In this document: positions 6,755-58,137 of the stretch, piece by piece
How positions within the stretch are numbered: the stretch's first letter is position 1
How the letters are laid out: each line of letters starts with the position of its first letter
DNA from: Chiloscyllium plagiosum
Lineage: Eukaryota
DNA length: 64,000 nucleotides
Assembly: GCF_004010195.1 (NCBI RefSeq)
Contig: NC_057752.1
Coordinates: 2,189,750 to 2,253,749 of the forward strand
Reading direction: 5' to 3'
Position numbers and translations under genes: made by a program
The notes under the pieces: generated by a model
What the model was told of the DNA's origin: nothing
Database searches by the model: none
The model's input: only the letters and a program-made list of their open reading frames with translations

Positions 6755-7384
6755 CTTTTTTTTCTTTTTTTTCTTTTATTTTACTCTTTTTTTTTTTCTT
6801 TTTTCTTTCTTTTTTTAACCCCCACACTACCACCTAAGTGCGGTAGTGCTTATTTTTCCCCCAGCACCCATGGTGTGTGTGTGCAGGTGTGAGACAGAGT
6901 GAAAGACACAAAGTGCACAAATCTTTATTCAAATTCCACCACCAGGAAGATAGGAAAACACCCGGGTGGCCAGTGACAAACACTGCCCTTCACATCAAAG
7001 GGCANNNNNNNNNNNNNNNNNNNNNNNNNNNNNNNNNNNNNNNNNNNNNNNNNNNNNNNNNNNNNNNNNNNNNNNNNNNNNNNNNNNNNNNNNNNNNNNN
7101 NNNNNNNNNNNNNNNNNNNNNNNNNNNNNNNNNNNNNNNNNNNNNNNNNNNNNNNNNNNNNNNNNNNNNNNNNNNNNNNNNNNNNNNNNNNNNNNNNNNN
7201 NNNNNNNNNNNNNNNNNNNNNNNNNNNNNNNNNNNNNNNNAATAGAATTGGAGGGAGAAATGATGCACTCCACTCCCTGCGGCGCCCACCTCTCCCTGAA
7301 CAACTCCAGGGTGTTGGTCGACACCGCGTGCTCCTTCTCCAAGGACACCCGGGCTCTAACGTAACCGCGGAAGAGGGGCAGGCA
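6755..7384 (-). mobile_element. 5'-truncated Tx1/L1-clade LINE (insert B), ORF2 C-terminus plus 3' UTR and poly-A; contains an assembly gap
   Basis: Minus strand CLPLFRGYVRARVSLEKEHAVSTNTLELFRERWAPQGVECIISPSNSI resembles Tx1-type ORF2 C-termini. Long T-rich tail at 6755-6816. Flanked by ACCCTCCTGTTTCT at 6741-6754 and 7385-7398. Confidence 0.75.
7005..7240. other. Assembly gap (N run); further gaps at 11386-11476 and 31981-31999
   Basis: Runs of N in the sequence. Confidence 1.
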
Positions 7385-10300
7385 ACCCTCCTGTTTCTAT
7401 CTGTCAGCCATGGCTATCTGATTGGACCAGATTAACAGCCCCAATCAGGGTATTCATAATGTATGAGGTCCACCTGGCTGATCTCATTGCGATTACTACA
7501 TCCCTCCCCCTCTGAGTCCAAGGACATAGGCTGGTTCTTTTTCTTATAACCCCTCCTGTGGCTTTTTAGCAGCGGGTCAGGTTCCCCTGACTCTGCCTCT
7601 GATATGAGCGTTGTGTAACAAAAAGCAGCTCATCTCTTGCACCCGGAGTGTCTCGGAAGAAATTAATTCTCCTCTTCAGGCAGCAAAGGCATCAAGGCAG
7701 TGACGTCCACCATGTCCATTTCAGATTCTGAGGTATCTTCAATGCTTGACGGAGAGGGAGAACCCATGGGTTCTAGAACAGTCAGAAAGCCCATTGCGTA
7801 GCCGGGCCTGTTTTGCTCCTGCCCATTTTGCAAGTTTGCAGCTTTTATATGGCCCACATTCTTGTTCAGGACTATCGCACCTACCCGAACGTTATACATC
7901 ACGAGACCTGACCTCATACAACCATGCCTCTTACCCATGCAGGGCCATTCCCATGGCTGCTGCACCAAACTTCATTCCATGAAGTAAACTGTCTCTCTTA
8001 TTTAGCAGAATCTTGGGTCTCGCATCAGTGTTCTTCATGCCATTTCACCACTCCCATCCCCCAGGTCCAGGAAGATCAGATTTAACCTGGTGCTGAGTCT
8101 TCTCCCCATTAGCAACTTTGCTGGAACTATCCCTGTACTTGCATGATGGGTGATCCTACAATCAAGAGGAAACCAGGACAAGTTGGCATCAAGTGAAGCT
8201 GTAGGCTGTTTCTTTCAGCCTGCCTTCAAAGTTTGGACTGCTCTTTCTGTTAGACTATTGGATGATGGATGGTATGGAGCTGCCCTTTTATAATGAATAC
8301 CATTTGACTTTAGGAAATACTCAAATTCCCTACTGGTAAACGGTGGCCCGTTATCTTCGATCAACACTTCCGGGAGTCCATGTTTTGCAAAAATTGTATG
8401 CAGTTTTTCTATCATTGTCCCCTTGTTCGACAAATCGGCCCTTTGTATGTCCAGCCATTTTGAGTTGCATCCACAATAACTAAGAACATTGAGCCTGTGA
8501 AAGGACCTGCATAAATGGTGTGTAACTGAGCCCAGAGTTTATCTGGCCATTCCCACAAATGTGGATAAGTGATTGGTGTAATCTTTGTCCTTGATGGCAC
8601 TCTGGGCACTGCCCGACCAACACAGTCTGCATCCAATCCTGGCCACCAGACAGAACTTCTCACCAACATCTTCATGTTGGATCCCCTGGATGACCCTGGG
8701 GTGGAGTTCAGTCAGTGTCTGGCAGCGACCTTTGCTCAGGACAATCACTCTTGCTCCCCATAATAATATGCCACCCTCTATTGTGGTCTGGTCTCTCTGG
8801 GTCCAGAAAGGTTTCACTTCTGGCTGTGATGGCCCTTTGGTTTCCCCCATCCCCACCAGCTGTTTCAGTTTTGCCAGGACTGGATCTTTATGCGTCCAAA
8901 GTCTGATATTGTCAGCTGTGACTGGAAGTGTGTCCAGAAAATTTAAAGCCATTACCGACTCTTCCAGTGGTGGTAGCACCGGTGGTGTATCTGCCAGTGG
9001 GAGGCACCTCAGTGCATCTGCATTTGCTACTTGGCCTCCCGGACAGTGTTCCAACATGTAATTGTACGCATGGAGAACGAGAGCCCGCTGCTGAATTAAA
9101 GCTGAAGCTATGGGCGGCACTGCCTTGGTCCTCTTTACGTAGACCTAGCAGGGGTTTGTGGTCCGTTATAGTTACAGATTTATGTCCGTAAAGGTATTGG
9201 TGGAACTTGCTGACTCCAAATATGACCGCCAAACCTTCCTTCTCTGTCTGGGTGTATTTTACACTCTGCAAAAGCCAAAGTCCTGGATGCATACGCTATT
9301 GAGCGTTCCTCTCCATTGGGCCACCTGTGAGCTAATACTACCCTGATGCCGTGCAGGGAGACATCGCATGTCAACACCAGATCTCACTGAGGATCATAGT
9401 GTGTCAACACCTTAGAGGATGATAGAGGTTTCTTCACTTCCCTGAAAATTTTGGCATGGCCAATGGATCCTTTCCAAGGCTGACCCTTTTATAAAAGTTA
9501 GCAGATGGATGGAGGCCAGGTTATGTATGAACTTTCTGTAAAAATTCACCAGTCCAAGGAAAGTCCTCAGCTCCGGTCCCAATGTGGGAGCTGAGGCACA
9601 TTTGACCACCCTCACTGTATCTTCCAACAGGTGTAACCCAGTCTTGTCGACTCTGTAGCCCAAGTAGGCCACTTGAAGTGCCTGAACGCACATTTTACCC
9701 TTCTAAGGCATACGCCCACCTGGGAGAAACGTCAAAGAGCTATGTCCAACTGCTCCTTATTGGTCTTCCTTGTTATTAGCACATCATTTAGGTAAATGGT
9801 AACCTGGGGGTAGACCTTGTAAAATGTTCTCTATTATCCGCTGCATAATGGCACAGGCTGACGATACCCAAATGGAAGTCTCGTTTATTGGTACAAACCC
9901 TTTTGGGTATTAATTGTAGCATACTTCTGGGAATCCTTATCTAACTGCAATTGCAAGTATGCATAGCTCATGTCCAGCCTCGTGAAGGACAATCCTCCTG
10001 CCAGCTTTGCATATAAACCCTCTGTGTGAGGGATTGGGTATTAATCCAGGTGTGAAAAACGGTTTACTGTTTGTATAAAATCCTCACAAAGGGGAACCGA
10101 CCTCTCAGGCTTCACAATCAGTACGACCGGTGCTGCCCATTCCATAACCTGGACTGGTTTGACGATTCCTTCCCTTTCCAGCCTCCTGATTTCTGCCTCT
10201 ACTTTTGCCCATAAGGCAATTGGCACTGGGTGGATCTCACAGAATCGTGGAATTGCCTCCTAGTCAACATGCAAGGTGGCCTTGGCTCATTTAATAGTCC

Positions 10301-11137: not shown

Positions 11138-11536
11138 CCGATGTGGCCTCCTCTATACTGGGGAGACGTGCCGCCTACTTGCGGAACGTTTCAGAGAGCA
11201 CCTCTGGGACACCCGGACCAACCAAGCCAACCATCCTGTGGCTCAACACTTCAACTCCCCCTCCCACTCCACCAAGGACATGCAGGTCCTTGGACTCCTC
11301 CATCACCAGACCATAGCAACACGACGGTTGGAGGAAGAGCGCCTCAACTTCCGCCTAGGAACCCTCCAACCACAAGGGATGAACTNNNNNNNNNNNNNNN
11401 NNNNNNNNNNNNNNNNNNNNNNNNNNNNNNNNNNNNNNNNNNNNNNNNNNNNNNNNNNNNNNNNNNNNNNNNNNNNTTTCCAGCAACACATTTTCAGCTC
11501 TGATCTCCAGCATCTGCAGTCCTCACTTTCCCCTCG
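11138..11536 (+). mobile_element. PLE 3' fragment (GIY-YIG endonuclease end plus terminal repeat) inserted in the Gypsy gag region
   Basis: Translates RCGLLYTGETCRLLAERFREHLWD...HPVAQHFNSPSHSTKDMQVLGL...RRLEEERLNFRLGTLQPQGMN. After the gap comes the same terminal repeat as at 14494 (ttccagcaacacattttcagctctgatctccagcatctgcagtcctcactttc). Confidence 0.87.
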
Positions 11537-12671: not shown

Positions 12672-13055
12672 TCTCAGCTGAGCATCTTGGGGTCTCCGAA
12701 CCTAACGCGGTTCGACAGCAAAAGCAGCATTTTCAGTATTAGAGATCGGAAAGAACCCGGTTCAGAAACAGAATTTGCTGACGATGAGCACAGCACGGTG
12801 GAAGAGACAGATGGCAACCGGAAGAATTCTTTGTTTGTTCCGAACAGGGAACCCAACAGGAGGAATAGCTACAGTGGCTACAGTCAACCCAGCAAGTCGT
12901 CAAAAATGTTTCCCGTCCTTCCAGTCAATGTGAAAAGGAACAGCACAGTGGACTGCAATGGTGTGGTCTCACTAATCGGTGGCCCAGGAGCTACCCTGTC
13001 TGGTGGACGCCTACTGCCTGAGGTGATAATAGATAAGGCAGCTACTGATGACAGT
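12672..13055 (+). CDS. SCN8A: Nav1.6 I-II loop exon with two in-frame donors: short form ends 13022 (351 nt), long form ends 13055 (384 nt)
   Basis: Acceptor ttgcag|TCT. Encodes SQLSILGSP...SKSSIFS...[17 protein letters not shown]...[18 protein letters not shown]...GGRLLPE then [11 protein letters not shown]. Donors GAG|gtgata and AGT|gtaagg. Confidence 0.95.
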
Positions 13056-31899: not shown

Positions 31900-32132
31900 A
31901 TCTGTCCTCTCTGTCTCTTGCTCTCTCTTGTCTCTTAGCTCTCTCTCTTGCCTCCTAGCTCTCTCTCTTGCCTCCTAGCTNNNNNNNNNNNNNNNNNNNC
32001 TCTGTCTCTCCTCAATCTTCCTCGCTATCTCTCTACCATCTCCCTCTCTCTTTCTCCACCACTTCTCTCTACCTCCCCCTCCCCCATCACCTCCCCTTCT
32101 CTCTCTGTCTCCAACATCTCCCCCTCTCTCCT
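31900..32132. repeat. CT-rich low-complexity tract with a small gap
   Basis: ctctctcttg and cctcctagct repeats and pyrimidine runs. Confidence 0.9.
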
Positions 32133-48075: not shown

Positions 48076-48138
48076 GTAAGTCCTTGTAAAGTCGAGCAGC
48101 ATTTGCCTTGGGCATGACTGTACATTTATTGTCTTGTC

Positions 48139-49342
48139 ACTTAGCCAAATGAAAAGCAGAATTCTGAAGCTGAGTCTAATGCCCATTTTCTTTTGTTGTA
48201 GTTATATGCTGCCTGCATTTTCAGGTGTTTTATCTTCCTTTCAGTGCAAACTCTTTCTGGGATTCAGGTCCCATAGGTGCCAGGCACTGTTCAATTCTCT
48301 TAATGGTCATTTAACATGAGTGCATGTGAACAGCCTGTGGCCTCAATTGCAACTGAGCCTTCTCTTGTGGTCTTGTCCAAATCCAAGATTTTCCAGCAGC
48401 CTCCCTTTCCATCTGACCCTATCAGTATAATCTTAGTGAGAGATACTGGCACACTGGTAACAGCACCAGGCTAGTAATCCAAAGCACTGGGGACATGGGT
48501 TCAAATTTAATGAATAGATCTGGAATTGAAAGGTTGTCTCAGCAACAGTGACTATTGCTGTACGGGTATATCAGCTTATTACCCTGTCTGAACTGCTGGT
48601 CATGATGAAGGTTGCTGCCACCATCCTGTTTGAGTGTAGAAAACTACAGGCCTGTTCGGTCTCGTGTGGGAGAGGAAAACCACCTCCTCGTCCAACTAGA
48701 AGAGGCTCATGTAGTTCACAAGGTGTAGTTTATTGCATGTACTTAGCCAAATGAAAAGCAGAATTCTGAAGCTGAGTCTAATGCCCATTTTCTTTTGTTG
48801 TAGTTGTATGCTGCCTGCATTTTCAGGTGTTTTATCTTCCTTTCAGTGCAAACTCTTTCTGGGATTCAGGTTCCATAGGTGCCAGGCACTGTTCAATTCT
48901 CTTAATGGTCATTTAACATGAGTGCATGTGAACAGCCTGTGGCCTCCATTGCAACTGAGCCTTCTCTTGTGGTCTTGTCCAAATCCAAGATTTTCCAGCA
49001 GCCTCCCTTTCCATCTGACCCTATCAGTATAATCTTAGTGAGAGATACTGGCACACTGGTAACAGCACCAGGCTAGTAATCCAAAGCACTGGGGACATGG
49101 GTTCAAATTTAATGAATAGATCTGGAATTGAAAGGTTGTCTCAGCAACAGTGACTATTGCTGTACGGGTATATCAGCTTATTACCCTGTCTGAACTGCTG
49201 GTCATGATGAAGGTTGCTGCCACCATCCTGTTTGAGTGTAGAAAACTACAGGCCTGTTCGGTCTCGTGTGGGAGAGGAAAACCACCTCCTCGTCCAACTA
49301 GAAGAGGCTCATGTAGTTCACAAGGTGTAGTTTATTGCATGT
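48139..49342. repeat. Near-identical 602-bp tandem duplication
   Basis: Copies at 48139-48740 and 48741-49342. I see three substitutions by eye (gttatatg/gttgtatg, ggtcccat/ggttccat, ctcaattg/ctccattg). Duplicated ORFs appear in the track. Confidence 0.95.
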
Positions 49343-50974: not shown

Positions 50975-51229
<255 letters not shown>

Positions 51230-54670: not shown

Positions 54671-57584
54671 TTCATTGAGCCCTTTAATGTAATATAATTG
54701 CTCAAGGTGTTTCACCAAGAAATTTTGAAACAAAGTCCTATAGAGCTTCAACCTGATGGAGAATAGCACATAGTGTACAAAATGATGAAATGTTATACAA
54801 TGCATATGTTATTGGAGATTAATATACACACTATCCTCATTCTAAAATGAACGAATTTCAAAAGAGGCTGTCCCACTTGTTCACGAGAAGGAAGGAAAAG
54901 TTAGAAAATGTTTTGCAGCACATTGATGCTTTAAATGACTTCTTGAAATTTAACTATTTATTGGTTTTCTTTACATTCATTTTTGGGATATAGATGTTGT
55001 TGGCTAATTTCCCTTGAGAAGATGGTGGTGAACTGCCTCTTTGAACTGCTGCAGTCCATGTGCTGCAGTGAGACCCACAATGTCATTAGGGAGGGAATTC
55101 CAGGAGTTTGACCCAGTGACATGAAGAAACAGCAATATATTTCCAAGTCAGGCTGGTCACTGGCTTGGAGGGGAACTTGCAGGTGATGGTGTTCTCATGC
55201 ATCTGCTGTCTTATTGGTCATTCCTAGTTCATAAAGCACCAAGTTTATTGTCAATTTTGCTTTTCCAAGAGACTGAACCACTGAATGTTATTCTTTGAAG
55301 AAAGTTTGCAATTTAATTCTTGCAGTCCCCTCTCCCTCATTTTGTTCAACATCATTAGTTTCTCTTCGCTTGTGTAACCCCCTCACCCAAGTAGACTGTC
55401 CCAGGATCTGAGGTATCTTCATGTACACCACCAATGTCAAGCTAAACCCACTTGACAGATATAGGTGCTGGAGTCTGCTTTCTTATGCTCAAGTAGCAGG
55501 GCTAAGACTGTCAAATGGAACATGGGCAGGAATGCAGAAGGAATTGCATTGTACAAGTCACCATTTATACCCACCATGTACCCCTTTGTTTCTGGAGAGA
55601 GTCAATATGTCATTGATAATCCAAACTCGAAACTTGAATTTCAGTCTAAGTATGTGTGTGTCAGTTATTCTAAAGCAACAATATAAAACTTTACATAATG
55701 AAGGTTAATAATGACTTTGTGTTTTAGCCCAAAGATGCTTCCAATGATTGTTTTCAAACTTGTTAGTATAATATGAATGTGGAATAGTCTGATGGCATAA
55801 TGGTGGCAAATGATCTCTATTAGTATTTTGCCTGTGGATTTAAATTTCCATGTTGGTTGCATTGATTAGATAAACACATAATAATTAACATGTTACATAC
55901 AGATCTCATTAACTTCCTTTTCAGAGTCTTGGACGATCAGCATCTTTACTTTTCCTTTTGGCTTCGGGTACAATAACCATTGTAAACAGGTGGACGTGAG
56001 CATGCTTAGTATTCCATCTTGTCTGAAGGTGAACTAACAGAGTTGATAACCTGTAGATCAATTTATTGTCTCCTTTCCTTGTAGAATGGATTTCTCCCTC
56101 TTATTATGTTAAGAGTGAACACTGACAACATTGTAAACATGTCTTTAAATTTATAGCCTTTTGGAAGATTTTGAATTGTTTCAGTCTACTGTGTGTCTTC
56201 TGTAAAAGTTCGAAGAATGAATTGATTTTAAGATGTTTTCCATTTGTGCAGAACAATTCCTGTTCACCCCTCTGACTACTGAAGACAGATTTGGGTCTGC
56301 TATATTGCTTATGGTAGCTAACTTCCTCAGCATATTCCTGCTGTGATTTCTGGGGACAAGTGTAACATCCAGTACCAATTATCTCTGTTAAATTACTATT
56401 GTTTGTTTAGTGATTTATGTCAATTATAAGCTCAGCTAAAATGTTGAGTCAGAAGTCATAATGGACAAACCAAATGTTTGTATTTGTTATTTAGTGGACG
56501 GCTTATCTCTATTATATTGTCTTCAGTGCTCAGAGTGTGTAAAAAGAAAGCAAGTTGAAATGCTGGCAAAATAGATTTTGGCTCCTTCATTTGTTTCCTT
56601 ATGGCCAAGTATCTTTTGAGTGCGAAAGACTACACTCACAATGATTACTAGAATAAATATTAGGTATTAAAACACATGGATCAGGGAGATGCTAGTACAT
56701 TTATTCTACACATGCATCAAACCCACGTCATATATAATCTCTGACCTTTCCATCATGGTGAAAGAGCTACATTACTGTATCAGTGCAACATCGACCCAGT
56801 TGCAGATGCCATTAATTTAGTTATTCAAAATAAGATCCAATCTAAGCATCAATATCAAGCCATGCTGAATGGACATCCTTTAGAATTTAAATTTTAAGCC
56901 ATTTGGAGATAGAGTGGGGAATTCTGTCTTCCCTAGGAGGTACTAAGGAAAACAGATTTCACTTATTTGACATATTAATACTAATGTGTGTCAAACCTAG
57001 CCCCTTAGACTCTGTGATTTCCTCCCCCACCGCCCCACGTCTCTGCTGCCCTCAGCCTTGCAGCTGTGTAGTGCACCTATACAAACATTGAATAGAGAAC
57101 TGAACAAGATCTTCTTCAGTGTCCAATTTTTAAAGTTCTCACTTTAGCAACGACTCAAACTTTCGAGCATGTTTTGCTTGAAGGCCTGGTACTGTCTTCA
57201 AATTGTTCCTTGCCCGTGAGTCTTTTCAAACCTGATTTAACAACAAGTAACATTTCAGAAACTTCCCGAAGAGACTGAGCTAGAGTGCAGCTTCCAATTG
57301 AAATTTCCTGGGAATCCCTCTTAATTTTGTGCATTTGAATTTGAGTACAAAATGTTAAACTGAACGTGACTGGGCTTAACACATTACAGAATGTCAGTTT
57401 GACTATCATTAGGATCAGTTTGTTTGCAGATGGAACCCTGTGTCCCTCTGCCACCCACATCCTCCCCCCCGCCCTCCACCTCTGATCCCATGATCCCTTT
57501 CCAATGCAGTGCCTCTGTATATAAAGGATATATCAGAGGTTAGTTTGATATGCAGCACAGATTTACCTGTATTCTTTTTTGTAG

Positions 57585-57666
57585 GTACCTTTTATTTGTG
57601 TCGCTTAATTTTCTGGGCTTTTTCTCCCCTCACTTCGATCGGATCTTCACAAAGTAAAGGGCAAGG
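57585..57666 (+). other. SCN8A: Poison exon homologous to SCN8A exon 18N (82 nt, in-frame TAA at 57606-57608)
   Basis: Acceptor attcttttttgtag|GTACC and donor GTAAAGGGCAAGG|gtaagg. Phase-0 reading VPFICVA*. Lies 292 nt upstream of 18A. Its start and end resemble both exon 18A and mammalian 18N as I recall it (GTACC...GTAAAGGGCGAGG). Confidence 0.88.
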
Positions 57667-57958
57667 GTAAGGTTCTTATCGTCCATTGGGCGTTTTCCTC
57701 CAACAGGTCCCCTTTAGTTGTCTGTGTGTCTGTGACCCTTCTTTTCACTTTTCTTCCTTTTGTTCTGTCTTATGCCTCTTCTCAACTACGCATTTCCTTC
57801 TAGGTCACTAGGAATTACTTCAGGCAAGGGAAGTAGGGAGCTGGCCTCAGTTCATCGCATCGAGCTTGAGGCAATCTCACAATTAGTCCATTTTGTTTCA
57901 TCAGCAATAGGGCCTTTGCTAACAGTATTGGGAACTTTGCTTTTCTGTTTCTGTATAG

Positions 57959-58099
<141 letters not shown>

Positions 58100-58107
58100 T
58101 GACCTTC

Positions 58108-58137
58108 TGCATGCATATGAGAACAAGTTTAAGCATG
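58108..58137 (+). promoter_or_regulatory. RBFOX intronic splicing enhancer motifs downstream of exon 18A
   Basis: TGCATG at 58108-58113 (+27 from the exon end) and GCATG at 58133-58137. Mammalian 18A inclusion is known to depend on an RBFOX site just downstream of the exon. Confidence 0.8.

Follow-up and report, generated by a model that had tools for sequence, protein, structure and literature searches.

A probable ortholog of the SCN8A poison exon 18N in a cartilaginous fish

The window, by which we mean the whole 64,000-nt stretch of DNA analyzed here, contains 11 coding exons of SCN8A. These exons encode 860 residues, and 860/860 are identical to the Chiloscyllium plagiosum SCN8A-like protein XP_043537665.1. 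Human Nav1.6 is the top PDB match for two variable loop exons (114.5 vs 96.8 bits for one and 80.6 vs 49.7 for the other). In a tree calculated from 33 chosen proteins and covering exons 15–17 only, shark, skate and chimaera sequences group with gar, lungfish, axolotl, turtle and mouse SCN8A in an SCN8 clade with support of 100/98, and the SCN8A rows separate from the SCN1/2/9, SCN4 and SCN5 types. Judged from its sequence, the host gene is SCN8A of the bamboo shark or close kin. The PDB matches, the protein identity and the SCN8 clade bear out an earlier sequence-only reading, which had named the gene SCN8A and its host a cartilaginous fish. Exon 17 has an equal length of 174 nt in shark, human and mouse. 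A 6.8-kb intron separates it from exon 18A, and the reading frame remains open when the two are spliced directly. Exon 19 has no match anywhere within the 64,000-nt window. The features of this region are listed in Table 1.

The candidate exon 18N lies within this intron, 6,418 nt downstream of exon 17 and 292 nt upstream of 18A. In mammals, 18N is described as a small off-switch exon that keeps Nav1.6 silent outside mature neurons (excerpts of PMC8383430, PMC3809569 and PMC13011093). The shark segment is preceded by a pyrimidine tract and AG, and its 3′ end reads AGG/gtaagg. The branch-point consensus is yUnAy, and a candidate branch point with this pattern is found just upstream of the acceptor. 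When exon 17 and 18N are joined in phase 0, seven codons are read before a TAA, giving a predicted product of 1,275 residues (P0001 numbering). The same seven residues precede the stop whether or not 18A is also included, and a transcript that combines the two exons would carry the 18N stop too. The length of 82 nt is not divisible by three and breaks the frame as well. The exon first proposed here, 82 nt long and bounded by AG and GT, with TAA at codon 8 and a frameshifting length, 292 nt before 18A, is reproduced in full from the sequence. It is also longer than the roughly 70 nt of mammals, as had been remarked: 82 nt in shark compares with 70 nt in human and a listed 68 nt in mouse (PMC8383430 supplement 3, available part). 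18N is not repeat-derived within the window, and an Rfam scan of intron 17 gives 0 matches.

Table 1. Features of the exon 17 to exon 18A region of shark SCN8A (window coordinates)
Feature	Position	Strand	Remarks
SCN8A exon 17 (CDS 19), upstream partner of 18N and 18A	50993..51166	+	174 nt, phase 0; in-frame match to P0001
Candidate branch point (A at 57565), pyrimidine tract and AG acceptor of 18N	57562..57584	+	yUnAy fit; acceptor 10.5 bits
Predicted 8-bp hairpin over 18N branch A and acceptor AG; candidate	57564..57587	+	57564–57571 with 57580–57587; probability 0.94, one fold
Probable exon 18N ortholog	57585..57666	+	82 nt; homology rank 1/25,846, splice-strength rank 1/13,133 (+ strand)
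In-frame TAA, codon 8 of 18N	57606..57608	+	58 nt before 18N 3′ junction
About 15 extra pyrimidine-rich nt, missing from turtle exon	57618..57632	+	alignment gap, placement approximate
18N donor (AGG/gtaagg) and 5′ arm of predicted 15-bp helix	57664..57678	+	donor 8.3 bits; helix probability 0.9
Pyrimidine-rich first half of 18N–18A intron	57667..57812	+	71% C/T; 12 TCTT/TTCT/CTCT words
Consensus 18A branch point (A at 57922)	57919..57923	+	about 255 nt from 18N donor
3′ arm of predicted 15-bp helix, between 18A branch point and its AG; candidate	57929..57943	+	duplex −19.7 kcal/mol
SCN8A exon 18A (CDS 20), domain III S3–S4 voltage sensor	57959..58081	+	123 nt
Two Rbfox-type motifs downstream of 18A	58108..58137	+	TGCATG 58108–58113, GCATG 58133–58137

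The candidate was compared with a null set of all 25,846 AG..GT pseudo-exons of 55–110 nt on both strands of the window, 13,133 of them on the + strand. Splice sites were scored with a matrix built from the gene's own 11 coding exons. Both sites of 18N fall within the leave-one-out ranges of the true coding exons, which are 1.4–10.9 bits for acceptors and 3.3–10.6 bits for donors. In splice strength 18N is first on the + strand, first of 1,295 in intron 17 and second of 25,846 on both strands; these ranks are not p-values, because the pseudo-exons overlap. Splice strength and likeness to 18N are separate scores, and both pick the exact boundaries 57585–57666 first (for splice strength, on the + strand).

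Likeness to 18N was measured against three annotated peptides from two lineages, mouse and sea turtle, which were back-translated; the comparison is thus with peptides and not with 18N DNA. The mouse protein XP_017172008.1 ends nine residues past exon 17, and the sea-turtle models CAM4657574.1 and CAM4604722.1 extend 37 residues past it. The last 13 turtle residues and the stop come from exon 19 in a shifted frame (14/14 codons compatible), and the turtle 18N is therefore deduced to be 71 nt long. Mouse and turtle peptides fit a single DNA read one base apart at 9/9 codons; a fit of at least 7 is reached in 9 of 3,000 residue shuffles. With the combined peptide profile anchored at AG..GT, 18N scores 16.8 vs 3.6 for the best non-overlapping pseudo-exon, and with the turtle-only anchored profile 15.4 vs 5.1. 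The unanchored turtle profile gives 18N a score of 15.7, the second highest in the window but not significant, since the null maxima span 12.9–21.3, and with the unanchored mouse profile the 18N site is not among the top six peaks in the window. The proposed homology to known 18N is therefore upheld by the anchored mouse and turtle profile, with rank 1/25,846, but not by the unanchored profiles. Exon order and spacing in the shark (exon 17 of 174 nt, 6.4 kb, 18N of 82 nt, 292 nt, 18A of 123 nt) agree with human (174 nt, 5.8 kb, 70 nt, 377 nt, 123 nt) and mouse (174 nt, 5.3 kb, 68 nt, 354 nt, 123 nt), both as listed in the available part of PMC8383430 supplement 3. It is highly probable that 57585–57666 is homologous to 18N. 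With human and mouse 18N it shares the gene and the intron, a position 290–380 nt before 18A, phase 0, Val-Pro start codons, an alignable 5′ core and 3′ end, a premature stop and Rbfox motifs after 18A. The sea-turtle exon aligns with it over the whole exon, with both ends anchored.

The shark exon differs from human and mouse 18N in length (82 nt vs 70/68 nt), in about 15 extra pyrimidine-rich nt in mid-exon and in its stop at codon 8, which lies in a different frame. The pyrimidine-rich insert accounts for most of the extra length. Near codon 4, a peptide-based alignment shows the shark without 2 nt and the mouse without 1 nt relative to turtle, so that shark, mouse and turtle each read one shared core in a different frame. 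The shark TAA falls in what mouse reads as Leu-Ile, and at the position of the mouse stop the shark has a sense triplet. The first stop is at codon 10 in mouse and at codon 8 in shark, while the turtle models have no in-exon stop and are truncated by a frameshift, 13 codons into exon 19. A stop-codon position shared with mouse is not found in shark, where the stop arises in another frame. The mouse position is not a defining feature of 18N, because the turtle models also lack an in-exon stop. All four lengths (68, 70, 71 and 82 nt) break the frame. The three-frame pattern argues that the targets of selection are the RNA and the break in frame rather than a truncated protein. We infer that an RNA splice unit and its frame-breaking power are conserved, rather than a given stop codon or peptide. 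Plummer and colleagues are said to have described in 1997 an 18N in bony fish with a conserved in-frame stop; the turtle state may be derived, if pufferfish has the mouse-type stop.

The excerpts of PMC3809569, PMC13011093 and PMC8383430 describe mammalian transcripts with 18N as having a premature stop codon and as substrates of NMD. They add that fetal brain either includes 18N or leaves out both exons, and that the adult form is brought about by Rbfox1/2 through UGCAUG located 3′ of 18A. The in-frame skip of 18A is a third mammalian isoform (PMC8383430, same excerpts). Regulation of 18N has been demonstrated in mammals only. The available part of PMC3401437 makes similar statements, but this paper is retracted and is not relied on here. 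In the shark, 18A alone among the 11 coding exons is followed by two Rbfox motifs within 150 nt; four of the others are followed by one. Such a motif pair occurs in 36 of 6,390 sliding 100-nt windows. No Rbfox motif lies within 150 nt of 18N. Another TGCATG is present at 51221–51226, 55 nt downstream of exon 17. The TCTT/TTCT/CTCT words in the first half of the 18N–18A intron are possible PTB-type sites. For NMD the rule is a stop 50–55 nt before a junction, and the shark 18N stop, at 58 nt before the next junction, is compatible with it. The limit for steric interference is roughly 50–60 nt; steric exclusion of 18N vs 18A is ruled out by the distance of about 255 nt from the 18N donor to the 18A branch point.

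Among the matches listed, 36 chondrichthyan SCN8 proteins were collected. Twenty-three contain 18A, eight (from five species) skip 18A in frame, and five from Callorhinchus are probable read-through. The skip models are not specific, because exon-18 skipping is also seen in models of the paralogs P0430, P0447, P0450 and P0256. The shark 18N peptide is found in 0/36 of the chondrichthyan SCN8 proteins and in 0/482 of all collected proteins, with 15 of the 83 members of the main shark cluster listed. NMD isoforms are seldom annotated as proteins. The expectation that automated annotation misses 18N is borne out by the 36 proteins from sharks, rays and chimaeras, but pipelines have captured 18N in mouse and in sea turtles. 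The Callorhinchus tails past exon 17 (P0004, P0005 and P0149–P0151) were considered as 18N and set aside by eye as probable intron read-through. Callorhinchus SCN8 models without 18A probably come from an assembly gap on a 14-kb contig and do not indicate that the exon was lost. Short proteins with an 18N peptide at their end were looked for twice, and none was found among 120 listed of 515 and 120 listed of 563 matches, most of the short-protein matches being intron read-through. A scan of metagenome contigs by motif, aimed at host DNA containing 18N, gave a single match (L001), a chance match without a Nav exon.

Two RNA structures are predicted around 18N; both were spotted post hoc in folds of the shark sequence alone. 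The 15-bp helix contains six G–U pairs, and its core pair probabilities are 0.84–0.99 in four folding contexts. Its duplex energy, third among 144 donor–acceptor pairs, is equalled by 74 of 4,864 39-mers of the window and by 10 and 13 of 3,000 shuffles. The 8-bp hairpin would cover the branch A and the acceptor AG of 18N. The overall fold of 57520–57958 is not unusual compared with shuffles (z = −1.08). We found no report of an SCN8A 18N RNA structure in the literature searched. The helix would mask the 18N donor and the 18A acceptor region and would thus favor skipping of both exons. On this modeling, it is rather unlikely, though well short of negligible, that the helix matters for splicing.

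Our reading is that 57585–57666 is orthologous to SCN8A 18N and, as a non-productive exon used in place of 18A, probably acts as a working poison exon; we place the probability of this reading, from sequence, at about 0.85. By analogy with mammals, the shark would use 18N in fetal and non-neural tissue, switch to 18A and dispose of 18N transcripts by NMD. In embryo and non-neural tissue, where neuronal Rbfox is lacking, the spliceosome would take 18N or skip both exons, and the 18N mRNA would be degraded by NMD or translated into an inactive fragment of two domains. In mature neurons, 18A would be promoted by Rbfox bound downstream of it, resulting in full Nav1.6.

Other explanations may be weighed against this reading. 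The segment could be orthologous to 18N but unspliced in sharks, an intronic regulatory element or decoy that controls 18A skipping, with the double-skip isoform as the off state. The 8/36 chondrichthyan proteins that skip 18A, none with 18N among the matches listed, would fit, as would a predicted helix masking the 18N donor and the 18A acceptor region and a predicted hairpin covering the 18N acceptor. The helices are predictions, however, and the two splice sites, which match constitutive exons in strength, form the best pair on the + strand, whereas unused sites are expected to decay. The in-frame stop and the frame-breaking length are both retained as well. We consider an unspliced element quite unlikely.

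A spliced 18N might instead serve to produce a truncated Nav1.6 that has two domains, is stable and performs a role of its own. Truncated proteins are annotated in mouse and turtle, and the mouse and shark stops are at nearly equal places. Yet the C-terminal peptides are unlike in frame, sequence and length (9 residues in mouse, 7 in shark and 37 in turtle), and a stop 58 nt before the next junction with more introns downstream fits NMD, of which mammalian 18N transcripts are targets (PMC13011093, available part). A functional truncated protein is very unlikely. Slightly less likely still is a chance pseudo-exon in the 6.8-kb intron. Intron 17 offers 1,295 AG..GT candidates and the unanchored profile scan is not significant, but chance would have to account for two unrelated scores that both put the exact boundaries first, in a segment that matches the position of human and mouse 18N and is not repeat-derived within the window.

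An echo of 18A at the ends of 18N had been noticed before and is real, but over the whole exon the likeness is weak, equalled by 55 of 2,000 shuffles and by 18 of 1,326 pseudo-exons, so that a duplication origin gains little from it. The turtle alignment and the 18A alignment both need a 2-nt gap in the 5′ part of shark 18N but put it at different positions. In the turtle register, the shark peptide equals 18A at positions 1, 9, 11 and 12 (125 of 20,000 shuffles; 559 of 20,000 for turtle). The best one-indel DNA identity of the 5′ part to 18A is equalled at 21 of 8,658 AG sites. Because these 5′-part tests were chosen after the alignment had been inspected, an origin of 18N by duplication of 18A is suggested only. 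Intact, divergent coding copies of the domain III S3–S4 exon are present in the SCN5-type channels P0229, P0264, P0443, P0446 and P0448 (cichlid, carp, sturgeon, eel, rattlesnake). In three of these models the extra copy precedes the canonical exon, the side on which 18N and 20N lie. The extra SCN5-type exon is possibly the same ancient duplication, kept coding.

The paralogous SCN1A exon 20N, the Dravet poison exon, precedes the domain III S3–S4 exon in the same way, and its use falls as the brain matures; it differs from shark 18N, beside which it is set here by description, in its gene, in its length of 64 nt and in poisoning by frameshift with a stop in exon 21 (available part of PMC7790302). 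The same source gives 57% identity between 20N and 18N in human and 37.5% in mouse. Since shark SCN8 groups apart from the SCN1 type, which has 20N, a shared exon must predate sharks. The earlier dating of the switch to the jawed-vertebrate ancestor is a sound inference, though already implied by the 20N/18N paralogy, because of which 18N in the shark was expected. Another parallel is provided by the 5N/5A exons of Nav channels, a duplicated S3–S4 exon with Rbfox sites, proposed intronic RNA pairing and jawed-vertebrate age; in this case both copies are protein-coding and belong to domain I (bioRxiv 10.1101/2025.08.16.670673, available part). That preprint traces the exon 5 duplication and its control elements to elephant shark, and its main text does not mention 18N. 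The accessible part of PMC9741552 makes no mention of sharks or poison exons. No report of 18N in a cartilaginous fish was found in the literature searched, which left most subscription journals outside its coverage. The shark exon is a range extension of a known element, not a surprise.

A wider account would join these observations. 18N would have started as a copy of 18A that decayed and at first poisoned only through its frameshift, like SCN1A 20N and turtle 18N; in-exon stops would have arisen later and independently in sharks and mammals. A conserved helix joining the donor of 18N to the acceptor region of 18A would partly determine whether 18N, 18A or neither is used, and the same ancient duplication would persist in the SCN5-type channels of fish and snakes, as an intact alternative that codes for protein. 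As a whole we regard this account as unlikely and offer it tentatively. The shark exon places, by direct sequence evidence, a splicing switch of an epilepsy gene under clinical watch in the jawed-vertebrate ancestor. It also offers a remote point of comparison for identifying the nucleotides of 18N and its flanks that are important, of use in reading non-coding variants and choosing antisense targets.

Several other features were observed in the window. Three runs of N (7005–7240, 11386–11476 and 31981–31999) are all distant from 18N. On the − strand at 8200–10260, broken reading frames resemble by eye a pol remnant, presumably of an LTR retrotransposon to judge from their motifs. A head-to-tail duplication of about 605–615 nt with 99% identity lies at 48125–49342, just after exon 16, and is either recent or an assembly artefact. 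The exon that ends at 13022 has a second donor 33 nt further downstream, whose use adds 11 residues (13023–13055); we take it to be a known SCN8A alternative donor. Both donor forms are present in shark and ray models and in two turtle models.
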